DNA of 64,000 nucleotides from Alphaproteobacteria bacterium (lineage in GTDB: Bacteria > Pseudomonadota > Alphaproteobacteria > Rickettsiales > JABCZZ01): assembly GCA_013286285.1 (NCBI GenBank), contig JABDGA010000002.1:1349-65348 (forward strand), given 5' to 3'. The translations under genes were made by a program, and so were the position numbers. The notes beneath the pieces are model-generated. The model did not search any database, was not told the origin of the DNA, and saw only the letters and a program-made list of their open reading frames with translations. Positions within the stretch are counted from its first letter, which is position 1, and the number at the start of each line of letters is the position of its first letter. This document shows positions 24,465-62,512 of this stretch, piece after piece.

Positions 24465-24947
24465 CTATTCGTCATTCTGGTAGTGGCCTTTTTCCGGCTG
24501 GGGCTGCCATTTGTGGGACTTGGCGCGCGCATCGTCAATCTCGCTCTGTGTCATGCTCCAGGCTTCATCATTACGCAGGCTGAATGCCTCGCTGCTGCCG
24601 TTTTTGGTGGCCAGATCGAACCACATATAGGACAGCACCTTGTCCATCTGCATGCCGTTGCCGCCGCGATACACAAACCCCATGGCGATCTGCCCATCCA
24701 CATATCCCTGCATGGCGGAGCGATAGTACCATTTGGCGGCTTCTTTTTCGCTTTGCACGACGCCTTCGCCTTTTAAATATGCTTCCCCCAGATCATACTG
24801 GGCTTCGGGATCGCCCTTGTCCGCCTGGACGCGCAGCCGGGCAATATCGGCGCTATCCAGATTCCCGTCACTGTCATATGCAAATGCACCTGCAGGACAT
24901 AAAGAATACAGAATCACTAATAAAAGGGTGGCGATAATAAACCTCAT
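24465..24947 (-). CDS. Secreted Sel1-repeat protein (copy 1)
   Basis: Sel1/TPR-like repeats 'AQYDLGEAYLKGEGVVQSEKEAAKWYYRSAMQG'. Signal peptide from the Met at 24947, whose ATGA overlaps the upstream paralogue's stop. The longer track ORF starts at 24989. Confidence 0.8.
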   Translation of the reverse strand: MRFIIATLLLVILYSLCPAGAFAYDSDGNLDSADIARLRVQADKGDPEAQYDLGEAYLKGEGVVQSEKEAAKWYYRSAMQGYVDGQIAMGFVYRGGNGMQMDKVLSYMWFDLATKNGSSEAFSLRNDEAWSMTQSEIDDARAKSHKWQPQPEKGHYQNDE

Positions 24948-25435
24948 TCGGACTCTCCGTATTGTTTGGGGGGCGGTTGTGGTTTCCATTCATCGGATTT
25001 CTTACGGGCTTCTTCTATTTCATGCAGTGTCATGGACCATGCAAGCTCATTGCGCATCCACAAGGCACGATCATCGCCGTTTTTTGTCGCAAGATCAAGC
25101 CACATGTAGGACTGCACCTTATCCATGGGAATCCCGCCGCCGCCGCGATAGACGAATCCCATGGCAATCTGCGCATCCGGATAATCCTGCATGGCGGAGC
25201 GGTAGTACCACTTGGCGGCTTCTTTTTCGCTTTGCACGACGCCTTCACCCTTTAAATACGCTTCTGCGAGATCATACTGCGCCTCAGGGTCTCCCTTTTC
25301 CGCCTGGATACGCAGGTTGGCGATATAGTCTGGTTTGGTGAATTCAGTATCATAGGCATCATAAGCAAAAGAAAGTACCGGGAATGCCTGCATAGCGATG
25401 GACAGTGCAGCAAAATAAATGCAAAATCTTTTCAT
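24944..25435 (-). CDS. Secreted Sel1-repeat protein (copy 2, tandem paralogue)
   Basis: 163 aa with a signal peptide 'MKRFCIYFAALSIAMQAFPVLSFA'. The core is nearly identical to copy 1. Confidence 0.8.
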   Translation of the reverse strand: MKRFCIYFAALSIAMQAFPVLSFAYDAYDTEFTKPDYIANLRIQAEKGDPEAQYDLAEAYLKGEGVVQSEKEAAKWYYRSAMQDYPDAQIAMGFVYRGGGGIPMDKVQSYMWLDLATKNGDDRALWMRNELAWSMTLHEIEEARKKSDEWKPQPPPKQYGESE

Positions 25436-39735: not shown

Positions 39736-40119
39736 ATGAGCTTAACGTTACGATTCCATAACATGGATCTGTCGGTGTGCAAGCTGGCTCCTTCCGCGCC
39801 TATTCCGGTGGATATATTGACATGGGAGTTTACGGTTTTTCTGCGCACTCCGGATGAAGTGACCCTTATATGTCCTACCACAATAGCGCCGATAGCCGTA
39901 AAAGTGGAATCCGGATGGATTGCGTTGGAACTTGTCGGGCCCTTTGATTTTGGGCAGACGGGTATTCTGATGCAGGTAGCAAAACCATTGGCTGCTTCCG
40001 GTGTCGCAATTTATGCACTTTCCACTTTCAATACGGACTATGTACTGGTTAAGGCAGATAAGCGTACTCTTGCACAAGAAGCGCTTCAAAAAACCGGACA
40101 CAGGTTTATAGAGGATTAG
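39736..40119 (+). CDS. ACT-domain-containing small protein
   Basis: 127 aa from the Met at 39736. '...GILMQVAKPLAASGVAIYALSTFNTDYVLV' is an ACT-like ligand-binding fold pattern. Confidence 0.55.
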   Translation: MSLTLRFHNMDLSVCKLAPSAPIPVDILTWEFTVFLRTPDEVTLICPTTIAPIAVKVESGWIALELVGPFDFGQTGILMQVAKPLAASGVAIYALSTFNTDYVLVKADKRTLAQEALQKTGHRFIED

Positions 40120-40921
40120 TCATTCCCAGTTTCTTCACCGCTTTTATCAGCGGTTCCACTATCTGCTCATTGGTATAATCGGCGTGGTGGACGTCTTTAT
40201 ATATGACCATTTCCTTAGGCTCATTTGCGGCTGCAAACAGCTCTTGACCATGGCGCAGCGGGATAGTGATGTCTTTTTCTCCGTGTAGCAAGACAAGGGG
40301 GGCATGGACGTTTTTTATCTTTGCCAGCGAATCGTATTTATCGCGCACCAGATAACGCGCGCCGAGTACGAACGGATAAAGTTCCGCCGAGCGGGTTTCC
40401 ACCGAAGTATATGCGGCCTCCAGCATTAGCAAACCGGGCGCTCGCTCGGTTGCCATCTGCACCGCCACGCCGCTGCCAAGTGATTCACCGAAATAGATTA
40501 ATCTCTTTTGCGGAATATGCAGATCGTTTAAGGCGTAGTTAATCGTTGCGTGTGCATCCTCATATAGCCCAACCTCTGAAGGTGTCCCTTCGCTTTTACC
40601 GAATCCCCGGTAGCTCACCGCCAGAAGCCCGAAGCCATTGTCAACAAACGCACTGAACTTCGCTGCGCGATCGCCTAAGTTAGCGGCATTGCCGTGAAAG
40701 TAGAGGATGGTGGGATAGCCGGGTTTGGCGCTATGTTTCCACACCTGCAGGCGCGTGCCGTCTGATGAGTGCAGAAAGATTTCTTCTATATGCGGAAGTT
40801 TATATTTCTCAGGCTCGGCAATAGCGCGAGAAGGATGATACATGAGGTTTCTCTGGAAGAGAAAGATAAGCGCGATAAGGATAATATATCCTGTAATCGC
40901 AAATTTAATCAGAACCCACAT
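40106..40921 (-). CDS. Alpha/beta-fold hydrolase, membrane-anchored
   Basis: 271 aa with an N-terminal TM helix, nucleophile elbow 'GESLGSG', 'HGEKD' and a C-terminal 'HH'. Confidence 0.8.
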   Translation of the reverse strand: MWVLIKFAITGYIILIALIFLFQRNLMYHPSRAIAEPEKYKLPHIEEIFLHSSDGTRLQVWKHSAKPGYPTILYFHGNAANLGDRAAKFSAFVDNGFGLLAVSYRGFGKSEGTPSEVGLYEDAHATINYALNDLHIPQKRLIYFGESLGSGVAVQMATERAPGLLMLEAAYTSVETRSAELYPFVLGARYLVRDKYDSLAKIKNVHAPLVLLHGEKDITIPLRHGQELFAAANEPKEMVIYKDVHHADYTNEQIVEPLIKAVKKLGMTNPL

Positions 40922-40944
40922 GTAAAAACGGTTTCGTTGAATCC

Positions 40945-41313
40945 TTATGATTCGTTATCGTCGAAGAATTTGGGTTGAAATGTGTTAGCAAAGATAGCGG
41001 CTGGTTTGGGAACAGGTACATCAATCATATTATATAGAGCTTTCATTTCATCACGAACTTCCTGTGAAGGGATGCCACGCCCGGCTACAATTACAGTGCC
41101 GTAATCTGCTGGTTTAAAATTCTCGCTAGCTTGCATTTTTGCAAACATTTTTTTTAGATTCTTCCCTAATAATTTGATGTAGGAATATACTTGATCACCA
41201 AACATATTAGTGCCTTGAAGAAGCACTACGACTTCAGTTTCTAAATATTCATCGCTCACTAACTCAGGTGATACATTTTTACCAAAGCCAGGTGTTGACC
41301 AGTTGTTTTTCAT
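40945..41313 (-). CDS. Hypothetical protein, paralogue A of an unknown ~120-aa family (AT-rich copy)
   Basis: 122 aa. About half the residues are identical by eye to 41885-42244 ('FGK.VSP.LV', 'EVVVLL.G.N.FGD.VY', 'QASENFKP..YG', 'QPKFFD'). GC 20/60 at 41161-41220. Confidence 0.6.
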   Translation of the reverse strand: MKNNWSTPGFGKNVSPELVSDEYLETEVVVLLQGTNMFGDQVYSYIKLLGKNLKKMFAKMQASENFKPADYGTVIVAGRGIPSQEVRDEMKALYNMIDVPVPKPAAIFANTFQPKFFDDNES

Positions 41314-41421
41314 GAAATTGCATTGCCTGCTAGCTGATTTAATACTTATAAACCAAATTACACTAGCATCTTAGAATATCAAGAGAATAAGTAAAACAAA
41401 AAAATAATTCAATGTATGAAT

Positions 41422-41598
41422 TTAACGCGGAAATCCAGGAGAGTTCTTGGGCTTCATAGGCAATGATGGTAATTCCCCTGTTTGGCTATATGACTGTGCT
41501 GCACTATTTGCCCAACGCATCGCTGCTGCTGTTTCTCCGCCAAATGCCCCAAATTTGCCTGTTCTAAATTCGTGAGCTTCTTCTTCTATGATTGCCAT
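41422..41598 (-). CDS. Possible small ORF (58 aa), below the track threshold
   Basis: ATG preceded by 'gaggaagag'. Translation is MAIIEEEAHEFRTGKFGAFGGETAAAMRWANSAAQSYSQTGELPSLPMKPKNSPGFPR. No homology is recognisable. Confidence 0.3.
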   Translation of the reverse strand: MAIIEEEAHEFRTGKFGAFGGETAAAMRWANSAAQSYSQTGELPSLPMKPKNSPGFPR

Positions 41599-41884
41599 AC
41601 TCTTCCTCGTTTTCTTATCTTAGCACGCCATAGTGTTATTCTAGCTACATCTTTTTAATATTCCGTTAATTAAAGATGATATTTTATCTATTTTCTTAAC
41701 ACGTAGCGGAATGCTTTCTTCTATAATCAGATTATACCGAAAGTAAACCCTGCATGTCCATCGCATAGTGCACCTGTCAAAAACAGTTCACATGATTGTA
41801 ACGGAACTGTCATAAATCTTTGGCTTTCGTGGGAAGCAAGCAATTCTGCAGGGTTGAAAAGGAAAAAACAATGGGACGAGTCTA

Positions 41885-42244
41885 TTATTCGTCAAAAAAT
41901 TTCGGCTGGGTTGTATTAATATGGAAGGGAGGATTGGGTTTGGGGATATCGGTAATTTCATGTTCGCTATGCATCGCCGCTTTGACTTCAGGCGGCGGTT
42001 CGCCGCGGCCCGAGGCGACGACATCACCATACTCTGAAGGCTTAAAGTTTTCTGAGGCCTGGATTTTCCGGAATATCTCCTTTAGGTTGGCGCAGGTCAG
42101 TTGCAAGTAGCAATACACCTTGTCGCCGAACAAATTATTGCCTTCCAGCAGCACTACCACTTCCGCGTCCAGAAGTCCGTCATCCACCAGATCGGGGGAG
42201 ACGTATTTGCCGAAAGCGGGCGCAATCCATTTATTTTTTGTCAT
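41885..42244 (-). CDS. Hypothetical protein, paralogue B of the unknown ~120-aa family (GC-rich copy)
   Basis: 119 aa. GC 35/60 at 42001-42060. Lies 8 nt downstream of the 86-aa ORF. Confidence 0.6.
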   Translation of the reverse strand: MTKNKWIAPAFGKYVSPDLVDDGLLDAEVVVLLEGNNLFGDKVYCYLQLTCANLKEIFRKIQASENFKPSEYGDVVASGRGEPPPEVKAAMHSEHEITDIPKPNPPFHINTTQPKFFDE

Positions 42245-49446: not shown

Positions 49447-50154
49447 TTAAAGTTTACAGCAAGCCTCTTCAATCACATTCTGCAATTTTGTAAGGAATTC
49501 ACGATTTTTCATGCCGTGTGTGATATTTTCTAAAAATTCTATCGTGATCGTGCCAGGTTTCTTAACAAAAGCATTTTTTTGCCAGAGATAGCCTGAATTG
49601 AGCGCAACTGGCACGACCGGAAGTTGGAGGCTTTGGTAAAGCGCCGCGACTCCGGGGTGGTAGAGGGAGGCGCTGCCCGGTGACATCCGTGTGCCTTCCG
49701 GGAAAATGATAATCGGGCGGTTTTCTTTCGCACGGGCCTTTGCTTCGCGCAGCATCTGTTTCATGGCGGACGCGCCGGACTTGCGATCGATGTAGATATT
49801 TTTCAGCCAGACAAGATACCAGCCGAAAACCGGAAAAAATATCAATTCCCGTTTTAGGACATAGGCGGGGCGATCCAGCAGCACCCAGAAAATAATCGTG
49901 TCCCAGGCCGATTGATGCTTGGAGGCGATAAGTGCCGCACCTTTAGGGATATGCTCGCGCCCGCGCACTTCATAGGTGATGTTGCACAGCACGCGCAGCA
50001 GCCACAGCGAACCCGCTCCCCATGCGCGGGCGATCGTAAACGCAAATGGGCGGTATACACAGACAAGTGGTATGCCGCATAGCCCAAGTACGGCAATCCA
50101 TGCCCAGAAAGCGATATTAAATAGGGCAGAGCGGATCAGCATGGCTTTATACAA
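49447..50154 (-). CDS. plsC: 1-acyl-sn-glycerol-3-phosphate acyltransferase
   Basis: 235 aa with 'HQSAWDT' (HX4D) and 'FPEGTR'. Confidence 0.85.
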   Translation of the reverse strand: MYKAMLIRSALFNIAFWAWIAVLGLCGIPLVCVYRPFAFTIARAWGAGSLWLLRVLCNITYEVRGREHIPKGAALIASKHQSAWDTIIFWVLLDRPAYVLKRELIFFPVFGWYLVWLKNIYIDRKSGASAMKQMLREAKARAKENRPIIIFPEGTRMSPGSASLYHPGVAALYQSLQLPVVPVALNSGYLWQKNAFVKKPGTITIEFLENITHGMKNREFLTKLQNVIEEACCKL

Positions 50155-50238
50155 TATTTATAAAAAGATTGCATTGTGGTGTAGTTTTTTTATGTTGGAT
50201 AATATATTTTATATATTTAATGAACCGTACAAAAGAAA

Positions 50239-50655
50239 ATGAAAACACGCATCTCTATTTTTGTTCTGGCTGCTGTTTTACTTGCAGGATGCAATAGCGG
50301 CGATTCTTCCTATTATACGGAGTATTCCCTGAATAAGAAGTTTGAAGGGCACCCGATCAATGAATTTTTCCATGCTTATGGTTTTCCTTCTGCCCGATTT
50401 GAAAAATCGGATGGCCAGATTATGTATCGCTGGGCTTCGTCTCAGTTAGATGTGTATCCGGCGCATGCGCATCCTGAAGCCTATTATTCTGATAAGGGAA
50501 CGTATGAGGTAGTGGATGAACCCCGTGGCGGAACACGCAGGCAGTATTGCGAGTTACGTATTCATACAGACAGGGCAGAGACTATCCATAAGATAGATAT
50601 TACGGTGGATTCCATGGGAAAATGGAGCAATTCAAGATGCTCTGAGATTTTCTGA
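50239..50655 (+). CDS. Hypothetical lipoprotein
   Basis: 138 aa with lipobox 'LLAGC' and no recognisable domain. Confidence 0.55.
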   Translation: MKTRISIFVLAAVLLAGCNSGDSSYYTEYSLNKKFEGHPINEFFHAYGFPSARFEKSDGQIMYRWASSQLDVYPAHAHPEAYYSDKGTYEVVDEPRGGTRRQYCELRIHTDRAETIHKIDITVDSMGKWSNSRCSEIF

Positions 50656-50674
50656 ACATAGTTGCAAGCAGAGT

Positions 50675-51847
50675 TTATGGTGCCCCCGGCGGACTTATCA
50701 TACCACCGATAGCGTATTTAGATAAAATATTTTCTGTCGGATCCCCTGTACCGATAGACCATCCTTTGCTTGTTGGATTGTCATTTTTGTTCCAGATAAC
50801 ATATCCAGCAACACCATTATTAAACGCTGTTTGTAGATTATTATCAAATAAGGCTGCTCGTTGCTGCAAGGTTGCCTCAGTTACCGTACCTCCTGGGCAT
50901 TGACCAGTTGTAGTAACTCCTTCCGCACAAATGCCGACTTCCCCTATAAAAGAAGGCTTATTCAGTGCTTTGCACGCGGCAAGACGGGACTGCAACTGCG
51001 GAGGAAAGGGAAGACTGCCAGTTTTATAACCGTGATACACATCGCATAAGTCAACAGTTCCGCTATTTACACGCTGAAAATCCGATCCTTGCCCGCCGCA
51101 CCAGCTAATCGCTCCCAGGTCCACCATATGGTTATGGTCAACTTGTTTGATTGCTTCTACCATATTATGGGCAAAATTAAATAATGCACTTTCTGCGGTA
51201 GTCTCGGAACAGGAATTGTTGGGGTTTCTTCCATCCGGCTCATTTACCAGTTGATACCAGGCAATAGTCGGTTCGTTCGCATAATGCTGCGCTACTTTTA
51301 CTGCGTAATCATGAAACGATAAAGGATATCCATCGTTTTGCTGGGTATATCCGCTTTGATACCATGACAGGTACTTCATAGTGCTGGAAGGCTCACAATT
51401 TGTCCATTCGTTCACCAGTATGGGAAGTATATAGAGATTATATTTTTTGGCATAACTGACGAAACGGTCAAATGTTGTGAAAGTGGAAGCGTTGTCTCCT
51501 CCCTGAAAAAATGCGACACGCACAATATTGCCCTTTGATGCGTTATGGATTTGTGCAAATACTGTATCAAGCTGGCTATCTGAAGGCCCAGAGCAACCGC
51601 TACCTAACCAGTCGTAATTATAACCGACAGCCCGGAACTCTTGTCCGTTAACCAGAAGATGTGTGCCGGATTTAGTAATAAAACCGCTAATTATCGGCGT
51701 TCCTTGTGCGTCTTGAGAAAAAGCAGAACCTGATAATATTCCCCCTAATAACACCGTCCACGAAAATATACTCACGACGCCTTTACGCATATAACGTAAC
51801 GGATTGTTCTGGAAGAAAAAAACAAAAGACTTAAATATTCCTGGCAT
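50675..51847 (-). CDS. Secreted glycoside hydrolase, GH5-like (beta-mannanase/cellulase type)
   Basis: Acid/base motif 'QLVNEPDG' and nucleophile 'FIGEVG', with a (beta/alpha)8-like spacing. The signal peptide probably starts at the Met at 51790. GC 20/60 at 51421-51480. Confidence 0.7.
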   Translation of the reverse strand: MPGIFKSFVFFFQNNPLRYMRKGVVSIFSWTVLLGGILSGSAFSQDAQGTPIISGFITKSGTHLLVNGQEFRAVGYNYDWLGSGCSGPSDSQLDTVFAQIHNASKGNIVRVAFFQGGDNASTFTTFDRFVSYAKKYNLYILPILVNEWTNCEPSSTMKYLSWYQSGYTQQNDGYPLSFHDYAVKVAQHYANEPTIAWYQLVNEPDGRNPNNSCSETTAESALFNFAHNMVEAIKQVDHNHMVDLGAISWCGGQGSDFQRVNSGTVDLCDVYHGYKTGSLPFPPQLQSRLAACKALNKPSFIGEVGICAEGVTTTGQCPGGTVTEATLQQRAALFDNNLQTAFNNGVAGYVIWNKNDNPTSKGWSIGTGDPTENILSKYAIGGMISPPGAP

Positions 51848-51964
51848 AAATATATCTTAAAAGTTAATAAAAATATACGTATTGGAGAGTATTATTTTGA
51901 TGATAATATCATAAATAAGTTAACTAATCGTTAGTTATAGAGATATTTACTAAACGAATTGCGT

Positions 51965-52879
51965 TTATTGAAATCTGAATGACAAAGCGCAGTTTTGGAT
52001 AGGAGCGTTTTGTAACTGGTATTTCTGAACTGCGGCGCTGCCACCTGCATAGCTGTTATCATAACAGGTTGTATTTGCATATGGAGTTGCCGCTGTTGAT
52101 GAAGCACAATAATCACTACCCCCGGCTCCTTGAGTGAGGCCACCGGCGGGGCCTATATAATTGCTACTGTTCCCAACATCAAAATTTTGATAACAGGCAA
52201 TGACGTTACCCGATTGCGGCAAGCCATCATCGATCTTGCTGTCAATGTTATATGCTTGCTGTACGGTTAGCCCAGGATTAGAGGTTGAATATATGCTGCA
52301 AATAATTTGAGTGACTGAAGAGACGGTATAGTAATTTGTGCCGTTGCCGATGCTGATAACATAGACAAAATTGTTTGTTCCTATCTTTGCGGTTGGAAGC
52401 CATCCGCTTATTTTTGGAGTTGATGTCAAGGTCGTTGTGCTGGAAGTACTTTCGTTGGGATAGCCAGCTCCTATCCCTATATAGGTGTCAATCAGGCCGG
52501 CTGTGCTAAGGTCCTGCCAAAAGATGGCAAGTTCGCCGCTTCCTATAGTGTGATTGCCAACCCCACTTGCATTATTGCTGCAATTACTTTGCAGTATGCC
52601 GTTCCCATCGCCTTCGCCAGGATATTGTCCCCTGGCCTGAAATCCGAAATTACTTGCATAAGGGTCGGGAATATCGCCAGGCAAACCGCCGTATTTACCC
52701 TGAAATGTGTGAAGCGCCGTATTATATTTTTCGATCTGAGCAATTTGTGCCCGCTGTGCGGCGGTGTCTATCAAATCCCGCCCGGTCAAAATCCCACCGA
52801 CAATCAGGCCGATAATGACTAGGACGATGCTTAGTTCGATGAGCGTGAAGCCGGAAGCAGAACAGGCAGTGGGGAGCAT
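51965..52879 (-). CDS. Large type-IV-prepilin-like protein (N-terminal cleavage/methylation motif)
   Basis: 'MLPTACSASG|FTLIELSIVLVIIGLIVGGIL' is a class-III signal: Gly-Phe cleavage site, Glu at +5 and a hydrophobic helix. At 304 aa it is about twice pilin size. The C-terminal region is rich in G/S/T/N/Y with 6 Cys. Confidence 0.75.
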   Translation of the reverse strand: MLPTACSASGFTLIELSIVLVIIGLIVGGILTGRDLIDTAAQRAQIAQIEKYNTALHTFQGKYGGLPGDIPDPYASNFGFQARGQYPGEGDGNGILQSNCSNNASGVGNHTIGSGELAIFWQDLSTAGLIDTYIGIGAGYPNESTSSTTTLTSTPKISGWLPTAKIGTNNFVYVISIGNGTNYYTVSSVTQIICSIYSTSNPGLTVQQAYNIDSKIDDGLPQSGNVIACYQNFDVGNSSNYIGPAGGLTQGAGGSDYCASSTAATPYANTTCYDNSYAGGSAAVQKYQLQNAPIQNCALSFRFQ

Positions 52880-59640: not shown

Positions 59641-60519
59641 ATGGCAAATGACGCATCACGTTCCGGTACATTCAAAATCGGAGGAGAAATTACGGTTAAC
59701 CGGCTTGGGTTTGGCGCTATGCGTATTACGGGGCCTGGTATATGGGATGAACCGCAGGATCGTCCTGAAGCAGTGCGTACACTTAAGCGCCTGCCTGAAC
59801 TAGGCGTGAATTTTATCGATACTGCAGACAGTTATGGGCCTGAAACCAGCGAAAACCTGATCTGTGAAGCGCTTTATCCTTATAAGCAACTGCTGATTGC
59901 CACCAAAGGCGGCCTGGTGCGCACGGGGCCTGATAATTGGGTGCCGCTTGCGAGGCCGGAATATCTGCGTCAGTGTGTTGCCCTGAGCTTGCGCCGCCTG
60001 AAGGTGGAACGTATTGATCTTTGGCAACTGCATCGTATTGATCCCAAAACCCCGCGTGAAGAGCAGTTCGGCGTCATCCAGGAGATGCAGAAGCAAGGCC
60101 TTATCCGCCATGTGGGATTAAGCGAGGTAAGCGTCAAGGAAATCGAAGCGGCACGGAAATTCTTTCCCGTAGCGACAGTACAGAACCGCTACAACCTGAT
60201 TGATCGCAGCAGTGAAGAAGTGCTGGATTATTGTGCCAAGCATACTATCGGTTTTATCCCCTGGTATCCGCTTGCTGCCGGGGAACTGGCGAAGCCGGGC
60301 GCAGTGCTGGATAGCGTGGCGCGTAAGCTGAACGCCACGCCAAGCCAGATTGCACTTGCTTGGGTGTTGAAGAGAAGCCCGGTTATGCTGCCCATTCCCG
60401 GCACCGGAAAGGTAAAACATTTGGAGGAAAATGTCGCTGCCGTATCCATTATGCTTTCCGATGAGGATTTCCACGCTTTGGACGAAGCAGGTCGGAATGC
60501 GTCGAAACAGGCCGCGTAA
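59641..60519 (+). CDS. Aldo/keto reductase
   Basis: 292 aa with '[10 protein letters not shown]', 'FIDTADSYG' and 'IDLWQLHR'. Confidence 0.9.
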
Positions 60520-60676
60520 TTTTATCTATTGGCAGGTGATGACAAGCTTGGCGATTATGTCTGGGACATTGTTAGTCTTACGTCTTCTTTATATCTCTTT
60601 CGGATATGGAACGTAACCTGTTTATGTGCTATATATTATACTTCAAGTTAGTGAATGACTAAGGGGGGGGGATTTT

Positions 60677-60898
60677 ATGAAAAATTCCGTAAAATTAGTT
60701 TATGCTATCACAATCTTGAGTCTGGTGGCAGGATGTGGAGACACTCCCGGTCGCCGTGCGGCTACAGGTGCCGGTATTGGTGCGGGAGCCGGTGCCGTTG
60801 GGGCAGTGCTACTCGATGCTAACCCAGTCGCTGGTGCGTTGATCGGGGGGGGCAGCGGGGGCGGTGACTGGAGCAGCAACCAACAAGAAGCAAATTAA
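60677..60898 (+). CDS. Small glycine-zipper lipoprotein (frame uncertain after the G8 tract)
   Basis: 73 aa with lipobox 'LVAGCG' and 'GAGIGAGAGAVGAVLL..GALIGG'. A G8 run lies at 60845-60852 inside the gene and a G9 run at 60663-60671 just upstream of the ATG. Confidence 0.6.
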   Translation: MKNSVKLVYAITILSLVAGCGDTPGRRAATGAGIGAGAGAVGAVLLDANPVAGALIGGGSGGGDWSSNQQEAN

Positions 60899-60907
60899 TT
60901 TGGGCAA

Positions 60908-62026
60908 TTAGGCGAAGAGTTCTGCCTGTATAGAGCCATGATCCACAGCTAGCACTTGGGCATCCAGGCCTTCAAAGACATCGTGATCGGTTCCAGTGAG
61001 CCAGCATTGCGCGCCTAAGGCCTGCAGTTCAGTGAAAAGTGCTTCGCGGCGTGTGCCGTCAAGGTGGGTGGCCACCTCGTCAAGCAGCATGACGGGTACA
61101 TTACCGTGCCATAGCGCACCCGCCTGTGCCTGTGCAAGCACTATGGAAACCAGCAATGCCTTCTGCTCGCCGGTAGAACAAAATTCTGCAGGCAGATTTT
61201 TTTCTTTATGTATGACATCTATTTTTGTCCGATGCACGCCGGTGAGGGCGCGTCCAGCCGCTGCATCCTGAGCACGGCTGCTTTTTAGTGAGTCTCTGAA
61301 GCCATTTTCGGTTGCCAGCGCTGAATTCTGCGTCAGCAACTCTTCCACAGCTCCCGATAAGACGATATGCGCTTTAGGAAAGACATGGGTGGGGATGTTC
61401 ATGGCGTTATTCAACTGTTCCGCAGCATTCTGGCGTGCAACCGCTATGGCAATGCCCTGTTCCGCCATTTTCTTCTCCAGCGCTGTGAGCCAGACCGGAT
61501 CGGTCTGTCCCATTTGTAGCAGACGGTTACGTTCGCGCATGACGCTTTCGTAGGCATTTACGCGCGTGGCATGCGCGCCGTCAAAACTGAACACCAGCCG
61601 ATCCAGGAATTTACGCCGCTCGCTGTTGCCTTCGATAAACAGCGTATCCATTTGCGGCGTGAGCCACAGCACAGAAAAGATACGGGCGAGATCCGTATGC
61701 GAGCGCGCGGTTTTTTCGTCGATTTTGACAATGCGTTTATCGTTACCATTACACTCTCTGCCGGTGCCGATGTTCGCGGGCCCCTTTAACCCCTCAATCT
61801 CTGCATGCAGCGCCCAGGGCTTGCCGTTATGCAGGTTGTCCAGTTCACTGACGCTTGCCCGCCGCAGGCCACGTCCGGGAGTGAGCAGTGAAATCGCTTC
61901 CAGTATATTGGTTTTCCCCGCACCATTGGCGCCGACAAGCACTACTGGGCGTATATCTACCTCCAAGTGTGCATAGGAATAGTTGCGGAAATTGGAAAGT
62001 ATCAGGGTTTTAATATGGATGTTCAT
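60908..62026 (-). CDS. recF: DNA replication/repair protein RecF
   Basis: 372 aa with 'GANGAGKTNILEAI' and the signature 'SGEQKALL', then 'LLDEV.AHLD'. Confidence 0.95.
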   Translation of the reverse strand: MNIHIKTLILSNFRNYSYAHLEVDIRPVVLVGANGAGKTNILEAISLLTPGRGLRRASVSELDNLHNGKPWALHAEIEGLKGPANIGTGRECNGNDKRIVKIDEKTARSHTDLARIFSVLWLTPQMDTLFIEGNSERRKFLDRLVFSFDGAHATRVNAYESVMRERNRLLQMGQTDPVWLTALEKKMAEQGIAIAVARQNAAEQLNNAMNIPTHVFPKAHIVLSGAVEELLTQNSALATENGFRDSLKSSRAQDAAAGRALTGVHRTKIDVIHKEKNLPAEFCSTGEQKALLVSIVLAQAQAGALWHGNVPVMLLDEVATHLDGTRREALFTELQALGAQCWLTGTDHDVFEGLDAQVLAVDHGSIQAELFA

Positions 62027-62098: not shown

Positions 62099-62512
62099 TT
62101 AACGTTCTCTGTCTGTGTTACCTTTTTTCTGTTCTTTTTTTGCTTTTTGTCTTCTCAGGAATTCGTCAGAGCCGGTTATGTTATCATGTTGTTCTTCACC
62201 GGAAGATATGGTATCTGCTGTATCTTGTTTGTTTCCGATTACACGGATGTCTTTGGCTTGTGGATGACTTTTAAGATATTTCTCAAATAATTCTTCAGCA
62301 TACACCGGATCGCCAGCTATCGCATCTCTGATTGATTGCCTTTGTCTATCAATTTCCTGTCTCTCACTTGGAATGATATATCCTTCAGGAGCTGGTACTT
62401 TGGCCACAGCTTCTGCTTCAATTAACTCTATGATTATACTATCAAGTTCAGGATCCAAATCGGAGAATTTTCTTATCCCTTCTGGTCTTTGAGCATCAAA
62501 TTCATTCGTCAT
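62099..62512 (-). CDS. Hypothetical acidic/basic orphan protein (137 aa)
   Basis: AT-rich (21/60 GC at 62101-62160). No recognisable motif. Lies between dnaN and recF on the same strand. Confidence 0.45.
   Translation of the reverse strand: MTNEFDAQRPEGIRKFSDLDPELDSIIIELIEAEAVAKVPAPEGYIIPSERQEIDRQRQSIRDAIAGDPVYAEELFEKYLKSHPQAKDIRVIGNKQDTADTISSGEEQHDNITGSDEFLRRQKAKKEQKKGNTDRER

Follow-up and report, generated by a model that had tools for sequence, protein, structure and literature searches.

Two poly-G tracts, one of them out of frame with its family, at a glycine-zipper lipoprotein gene of an uncultured alphaproteobacterium

The DNA analyzed here, referred to as the window, comprises 64,000 nucleotides (nt) of contig JABDGA010000002.1 (assembly GCA_013286285.1, positions 1,349 to 65,348 of the forward strand) from an uncultured Rickettsiales-like alphaproteobacterium. 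Between genes for an aldo/keto reductase (AKR) and RecF, it contains a small gene for a putative glycine-zipper lipoprotein that carries two guanine homopolymers, G9 in front of the start codon and G8 within the coding sequence (CDS) (Table 1). A first-pass annotation had located both tracts, the former 5 nt upstream of the ATG, and the sequence agrees. Homopolymers of about 8 or more within an open reading frame (ORF) or its expression signals are the usual candidates for slipped-strand mispairing, and G8 and G9 are of this kind. The analysis below indicates that the coding tract is one G longer than the frame conserved in the protein family.

Table 1. Features of the lipoprotein gene and its neighbors (window coordinates)
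Feature	Coordinates	Strand	Remarks
G9 homopolymer, 5' leader	60663-60671	+	Ends 5 nt before the ATG at 60677, then ATTTT; expected Shine-Dalgarno position
Lipoprotein CDS as sequenced	60677-60898	+	73 amino acids; frameshifted relative to the family beyond codon 58; identical to database protein P0001
Signal peptide and lipobox (LVAG-C)	60677-60736	+	Putative; translation MKNSVKLVYAITILSLVAGC; lipidated Cys is codon 20
G8 homopolymer, coding	60845-60852	+	Spans conserved Gly-Gly-Ala codons; one G above the in-frame state
Ancestral-frame C-terminal segment, AAGAVTGAATNKKQINLGN and stop	60852-60911	+	Second glycine-zipper helix and conserved tail; out of frame in the sequenced allele, undecayed
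Aldo/keto reductase	59641-60519	+	Pfam Aldo_ket_red, E = 1.5e-71; 157-nt AT-rich spacer to the lipoprotein gene
recF	60908-62026	-	Pfam SMC_N, E = 2e-20; RecF homologues up to 69% identity; convergent with the lipoprotein gene

The length of the coding tract, which sits at 74% of the CDS, determines the C-terminus. As sequenced, with G8, the protein ends in ...GALIGGGSGGGDWSSNQQEAN. An in silico rebuild with G7 gives a protein of 77 amino acids (aa) that ends in ...GALIGGAAGAVTGAATNKKQINLGN, and it reproduces the stop at 60909-60911 given in the first-pass annotation. With G10 the same canonical protein is obtained with one extra Gly, G5, G8, and G11 all lead to the DWSSNQQEAN tail, and G6 or G9 yields truncated products. 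In two of the three frames the protein is thus near full length (73 or 77 aa), and in the remaining one it stops after 62 to 63 aa.

The N-terminus reads MKNSVKLVYAITILSLVAG followed by Cys and then a segment rich in GxxxG/A, a lipobox that follows the established rule [LVI][ASTVI][GAS]C. An L(S/T/V)(A/G)C-G motif stands at the aligned position in homologues, and Cys-Gly is present in every homologue read. When compared with domain profiles, the G7 frame matches Pfam Gly-zipper_YMGG (PF13441) over positions 2 to 43 of 45 (E = 4e-4) and NCBIfam OsmB (NF007830) over positions 10 to 71 of 72 (E = 7e-4), with 20.4 and 19.6 bits, respectively, both of which are below the curated cut-offs of 28.9 and 98. 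The sequenced frame has no YMGG match at an E value of 1 or less; its sole Pfam match is Gly-zipper_OmpA (E = 0.5), its Pfam and NCBIfam matches end at residue 62, and it contains only the first of the two zippers. A phmmer search with the G7 protein returned 376 homologues, with E values down to 1e-24 when the window's own protein is excluded, nearly all of them lipoproteins of 75 to 85 aa annotated as PF13441 or as osmotically inducible lipoprotein OsmB. Because the profile scores lie under the curated cut-offs, family membership rests on these phmmer matches to PF13441-annotated proteins. By sequence similarity, the gene is a member of a distant alphaproteobacterial subfamily of YMGG/OsmB-type glycine-zipper lipoproteins and not an OsmB equivalog. 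It shares with PF13441 proteins and with Escherichia coli OsmB the lipobox Cys, a mature protein of about 55 aa, and two GxxxG/A zipper helices, but it differs from OsmB in the subfamily tail TKKQINLG(D/N) and, in the sequenced allele, in the absence of the second zipper.

The first-pass annotation had proposed the G7 frame as ancestral, and the comparison of C-termini, carried out on the 119 top homologues besides P0001 out of the 376, bears this out. The second zipper, G(G/A)AAGA(V/A)TGA, is kept in all 119, and a tail of the (K/P)xQINLG(D/N) type follows in 117, with the remaining two (P0054 and P0083) stopping just past the zipper. Several homologues end precisely in ...QINLGN, as does the G7 frame, and the G7-frame tail agrees with homologue C-termini residue for residue. 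None of the 119 has the DWSSNQQEAN (DWSS) tail, the outcome of the orthologue comparison that the first-pass annotation had suggested as a check, made here on homologues. At the DNA level, all five aligned homologous genes are shorter by exactly one base at the tract, where they read GGC GGC GC, GGT GGC GC, or GGT GCC GC, and none of the five has a homopolymer at this site. Downstream of the tract, most differences between the window and the homologues affect the third position of G7-frame codons. Taken with the YMGG match, these alignments firmly support G7 as the ancestral, family-conserved, and selected frame. The additional G is likely to be recent, because the out-of-frame downstream codons are undecayed and still match the family.

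It had also been suggested that the tract toggles between two meaningful C-termini. This part of the proposal is not supported, as the openness of the alternative frame appears to be compositional. When one base was inserted at the same site in three homologues that lack the tract, the shifted frame remained open for 12, 16, and 41 codons, and in one of them (L004) it ends in ...NQEAN at the homologous TAA. Since tract-less homologues behave likewise, the open alternative frame is best seen as a by-product of base composition. Its use replaces about 35% of the mature protein, deleting the conserved second zipper helix together with the conserved tail. Judged by the domain that is lost, the G8 product should be seen as that of a probably defective or OFF allele, not as an antigenic variant. 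The alternative, that the G8 frame encodes a functional product with a lineage-specific new C-terminus (...GGGSGGGDWSSNQQEAN), could draw on the open frame and on a product just 4 aa shorter. Yet the new tail is absent from all homologues compared, the conserved second zipper would be lost, the openness is of the kind that composition alone provides, and an ancestral frame no longer in use should have decayed but has not; we find this explanation hardly credible.

We infer instead, with about an even chance of being right, that the extra base is a genuine and recent product of replication slippage (G7 to G8) that inactivates the second zipper and can revert, with G9 serving as the Shine-Dalgarno (SD) sequence. 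The intact lipoprotein would consist of a signal peptide, the lipobox Cys, and two GxxxG/A zipper helices with a DANP loop between them. The Gly-Gly-Ala codons of the second helix would here read GGG GGG GCA and form a G7 run, to which slippage during replication would add one G. In the resulting 73-aa product, the second zipper helix and conserved tail would be swapped for GSGGGDWSSNQQEAN, and reversion by slippage, from G8 to either G7 or G10, would restore the frame. A G7 precursor requires no special selection, because GGG codon usage is ordinary: 17% of Gly codons in the long ORFs of the window are GGG, and GGG-GGG accounts for 2 of 65 Gly-Gly pairs in its other genes.

Some points weigh against a simple slippage event. 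Both assemblies in which the locus is known share the same reads, so that an artefact of template or amplification may lie behind the extra G. Both G/C runs of at least 8 found in the window fall at one surface-protein gene, and an incidental mutation leaves this co-location unexplained; such co-location of tracts is a classic signature for nominating contingency loci. Finally, that the G8 product is non-functional is a deduction from the loss of a domain.

The first of these points leads to the possibility that the extra G is a sequencing, amplification, or assembly artefact and that the organism itself carries G7 and an intact gene. Such an explanation would fit a frameshift that falls exactly in a homopolymer and an ancestral frame that is perfectly kept downstream. 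The locus is known from one run, SRR8423047, for which two assemblies agree on G9 and G8; no literature match for this run accession was found. The second of these is the Logan assembly, in which a contig of 7,994 nt was retrieved through the AKR protein, exact look-ups with P0001 and RecF having returned nothing. The 3,952 nt fetched from this contig are identical to the window, both tracts included, and records of the 73-aa protein, RecF, and AKR, each on a 68.7-kb contig, come from NCBI, JGI/IMG, and Logan. This identity excludes an assembler or polishing artefact, and an identical k-mer-based contig would imply accurate short reads. High-accuracy short reads seldom give consensus indel errors at 8-nt runs. 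Furthermore, full-length domain matches were obtained for ligA, ileS, a trmFO/gid-like gene, dnaN, recF, the AKR gene, an O-methyltransferase gene, and others, and no frameshift was found in the other window genes checked. The A/T runs of 7 to 8 in the window lie within uninterrupted ORFs or between genes, and no homopolymer of at least 7 elsewhere in the window breaks an ORF. A plain assembly error is therefore unlikely, given the identical Logan assembly and the absence of any other frameshifted gene among those checked. The sequencing error that the first-pass annotation had offered as its trivial alternative is accordingly weakened, with an artefact carried by the shared reads as the part that remains, and we regard an artefact of any kind as unlikely.

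A further possibility is that G8 is fixed and the canonical protein is nevertheless made by recoding, either through slippage of RNA polymerase (loss of one G or gain of two) or through a +1 shift of tRNA-Gly on GGG GGG GG. A G8 run is slippery for polymerases and ribosomes alike, and recoding would account for the undecayed downstream frame; its product would yield AAGAVTGAATNK-type peptides. Slippage during transcription or translation is known to partly bypass frameshifting indels in homonucleotide runs, G and C included (Rockah-Shmuel et al. 2013, PMC3812077; reviewed by Atkins et al. 2016, PMC5009743), and the +1 indel described here resembles those cases in lying within the type of run where indels arise and are partly rescued. 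It differs from programmed recoding in that the frameshift is not conserved, being present in none of the 119 homologous proteins and none of the five homologous genes, whereas programmed events normally are conserved. No stimulatory element was identified, and bypass that is not programmed is usually inefficient. Recoding is in our view very improbable.

More serious consideration is due to the idea that the gene is an evolved contingency locus, at which slippage of G8 switches between ON (G7, G10) and OFF or altered (G8, G9) states with a high frequency in the population, the G9 leader adds modulation, and the consensus represents the OFF phase. G9 and G8, 182 bp apart, are the only G/C runs of at least 8 in the 64 kb, with a C7 at 19506 as the sole other run of at least 7, and it speaks for a switch that both long tracts belong to one surface-lipoprotein gene. 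Under a local first-order Markov null, at least two such runs are expected in the 261-nt region with a probability of 0.009 if the tracts are part of the model and of 0.0008 if they are collapsed, and two runs within 250 bp occurred in 0 of 300 whole-window simulations, all of these being optimistic values since the region was chosen post hoc. The 261-nt region is itself G-rich (35.6% G). The number of G8+ runs in the window, as distinct from their placement, is at chance level, with three overlapping G8 matches observed where dinucleotide-preserving shuffles average 2.2 and reach three in 41 of 100 cases. Further in favor of a switch, all three frame states are within reach of steps of one base, the ancestral frame is undecayed downstream as transient OFF states would leave it, and homopolymer switches, including C-terminal ones, are known elsewhere (PMC2823697, PMC1891110, PMC10334774). 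Against this stand the chance-level number of runs, the G7 state being reachable through ordinary codon usage, the placement of G9 at the SD position with its 3' end fixed and outside the predicted promoter spacers, and the lack of other contingency-type simple-sequence repeats in the window. No tract-length variation was seen at this locus, present in a single run, and tracts were absent from both sites in the homologues examined.

The analysis also covered relatives and variants of the gene. A search for the syntenic locus based on RecF, covering 185,579 species genomes, found no close relative. The best RecF homologues, at 65 to 69% identity, come from uncultured metagenome-assembled genomes labeled 'Rickettsiales' or 'Alphaproteobacteria,' and at their loci the lipoprotein gene is not downstream, its place being taken by DUF179 or flagellar-export genes; no syntenic orthologue was found among them. 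One homologue gene (L027, encoding P0021) was considered as syntenic, as its convergent downstream gene overlaps it by 4 nt, but it was rejected since its neighbors are unrelated to recF and the AKR gene. In the JGI metagenomes, a DNA pattern tolerant of G6 to G10 had no match, and of 600 pattern matches from a protein-based metagenome scan none was confirmed by tblastn, probably because the query is short and of low complexity. When the same species genomes were searched for G7 or longer followed by AAGAVTG, 14 matches were obtained. About four of these are other glycine-zipper genes (Bosea lupini, Syntrophaceae, and Desulfovibrionaceae), all of them in frame, and the rest are unrelated; the 14 give no evidence of a recurrent frameshift hotspot at the motif, which again speaks against a contingency locus. 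The Bosea lupini match (L014, NZ_FOAN01000005.1, 3703-3729) is a glycine-zipper lipoprotein gene (MKTFTLAALAVMAMGLGAC...) with an in-frame G8 at the equivalent GG-AAGAVTG motif, and it indicates that long G runs can persist in frame in such genes.

Translational phase variation through poly-G or poly-C tracts is established in Neisseria, Campylobacter, Bordetella pertussis, and Mycobacterium tuberculosis (PMC5084427, PMC8355987, PMC1891110, PMC10334774). The present gene resembles those systems in having a G/C homopolymer of at least 8 in a surface-type ORF, a tract that is out of frame, and a frame that is toggled by a change of one base. It departs from them in the late position of the tract, which is not near the 5' end, in the single tract length known from one run, and in its host, an uncultured Rickettsiales-like alphaproteobacterium without a known repertoire of such loci and with no other contingency repeats in the window. 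C-terminal phase variation has been proposed for Helicobacter canadensis, in which reads showed length variation in tracts of G11 to G14 (Snyder et al. 2010, PMC2823697), and it is the nearest formal counterpart of the idea of two C-termini. There, as predicted here, the length of a late poly-G tract alters the C-terminal sequence and length by a few residues while translation is kept. Unlike the H. canadensis case, however, a single G8 state is found here, the swapped part of the mature protein holds a conserved domain, and the alternative frame is equally open in tract-less homologues. An evolved contingency locus is consequently a possible but minority explanation in our assessment. The locus is at most a candidate contingency locus, at which phase variation is unproven, and we see no positive evidence that selection maintains it as a switch.

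Turning to the leader, G9 extends from -14 to -6, counted from the ATG, and aligns with GCAGGAGGTGG, the AGGAGG-type SD sequence of homologue L001, and with GGGAGGA, the SD sequence of homologue L027. G can pair with C as well as with U, the two bases of the anti-SD sequence CCUCC, and a G run is therefore workable as an SD sequence. The alignment suggests that G9 is a G-only SD sequence of the lipoprotein gene. As the tract always ends 5 nt before the ATG, a change of one base in its length would affect its 5' side alone and should leave the spacing between SD sequence and start the same. Between 60400 and 61000, a single sigma-70-like match was found, at 60529-60558, more than 100 nt upstream, and a CTATAT of alphaproteobacterial type was noted by eye at 60629-60634. 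As G9 also falls in no predicted promoter spacer, a change in its length is not expected to act as a switch.

Two further features of the leader were observed. An upstream ATG at 60655 (60655-60679, forward strand), without a recognizable SD sequence, reads through G9. With the G9 tract, an ORF of 55 codons starts there, out of frame with the lipoprotein; G8 or G11 would bring this ATG into frame and add MTKGG(G)DF to the lipoprotein, and G7 or G10 would leave an upstream ORF of 7 to 8 codons whose TGA stop overlaps the main ATG (ATGA). An RNA hairpin is predicted at 60668-60687 (forward strand), GGGAUUUU-AUGA-AAAAUUCC, with the start codon in its loop, in which the last Gs of G9 plus AUUUU pair with AAAAUUCC of codons 2 to 4. 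The 121-nt leader has a folding z score of -2.45 relative to shuffles, and the hairpin is not obviously conserved in homologues. Neither the upstream ATG nor the start-codon hairpin counts as evidence of function.

A more elaborate form of the switch would make this a two-tract contingency locus, with G9 as a hypermutable ribosome-binding site that also frames the ATG at 60655 and a coding tract that toggles intact (G7), tail-swapped (G8), and truncated (G9) forms of the protein. We regard this version as unlikely.

The gene is set in an ordinary core-chromosome neighborhood by dnaN-recF, which includes genes for AKR, an O-methyltransferase, a UPF0176/rhodanese protein, a gid-type protein, ileS, and ligA. 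The stop of recF (60908-60910) overlaps the stop of the ancestral lipoprotein frame. No intrinsic terminator was found between these two convergent genes, and read-through from recF would consequently be antisense to the whole lipoprotein gene. An Rfam search of the window gave no matches.

Elsewhere in the window, two tandem Sel1-repeat paralogues lie at 24465-25435 (reverse strand), both of which have a signal peptide and a stop of their own. Their core is near-identical (...GDPEAQYDL(A/G)EAYLKGEGVVQSEKEAAKWYYRSAMQ...), and at first they resembled one gene split at a G6/C6 run at 24968; a second homopolymer frameshift at this G6 was rejected, as the two paralogues are complete. Host-associated bacteria often have secreted Sel1 proteins. 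Between dnaN and recF, at 62099-62512 (reverse strand), an ORF encodes an acidic, lysine-rich protein of 137 aa with a weak match to DUF4464 (E = 8e-4) as its sole domain match; relative L010 has an unannotated gene for 207 aa at this position, and other relatives have none. Two stretches, 40001-42000 and 50001-52000, have a GC content of 0.43 and 0.42, respectively, compared with 0.50 for the window, and the former holds a T8 at 41148 and ORFs without Pfam matches. These low-GC stretches could be horizontally acquired segments.

In conclusion, the mechanism considered here is a textbook one, and the biological pay-off is modest either way. If the tract does not switch, the value is one of annotation, as the deposited 73-aa P0001 would be a frameshifted allele whose C-terminal 15 residues are unfit as family sequence. 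If it does switch, it would be a first hint that contingency-type regulation acts on a surface lipoprotein in an uncultured and poorly known lineage of alphaproteobacteria, and it would point to a lipoprotein under fluctuating selection, for example, by a host, phage, or predator. Were the two-tract version to prove true, homopolymer phase variation would be extended to a lineage and a protein family for which it has no prior description.

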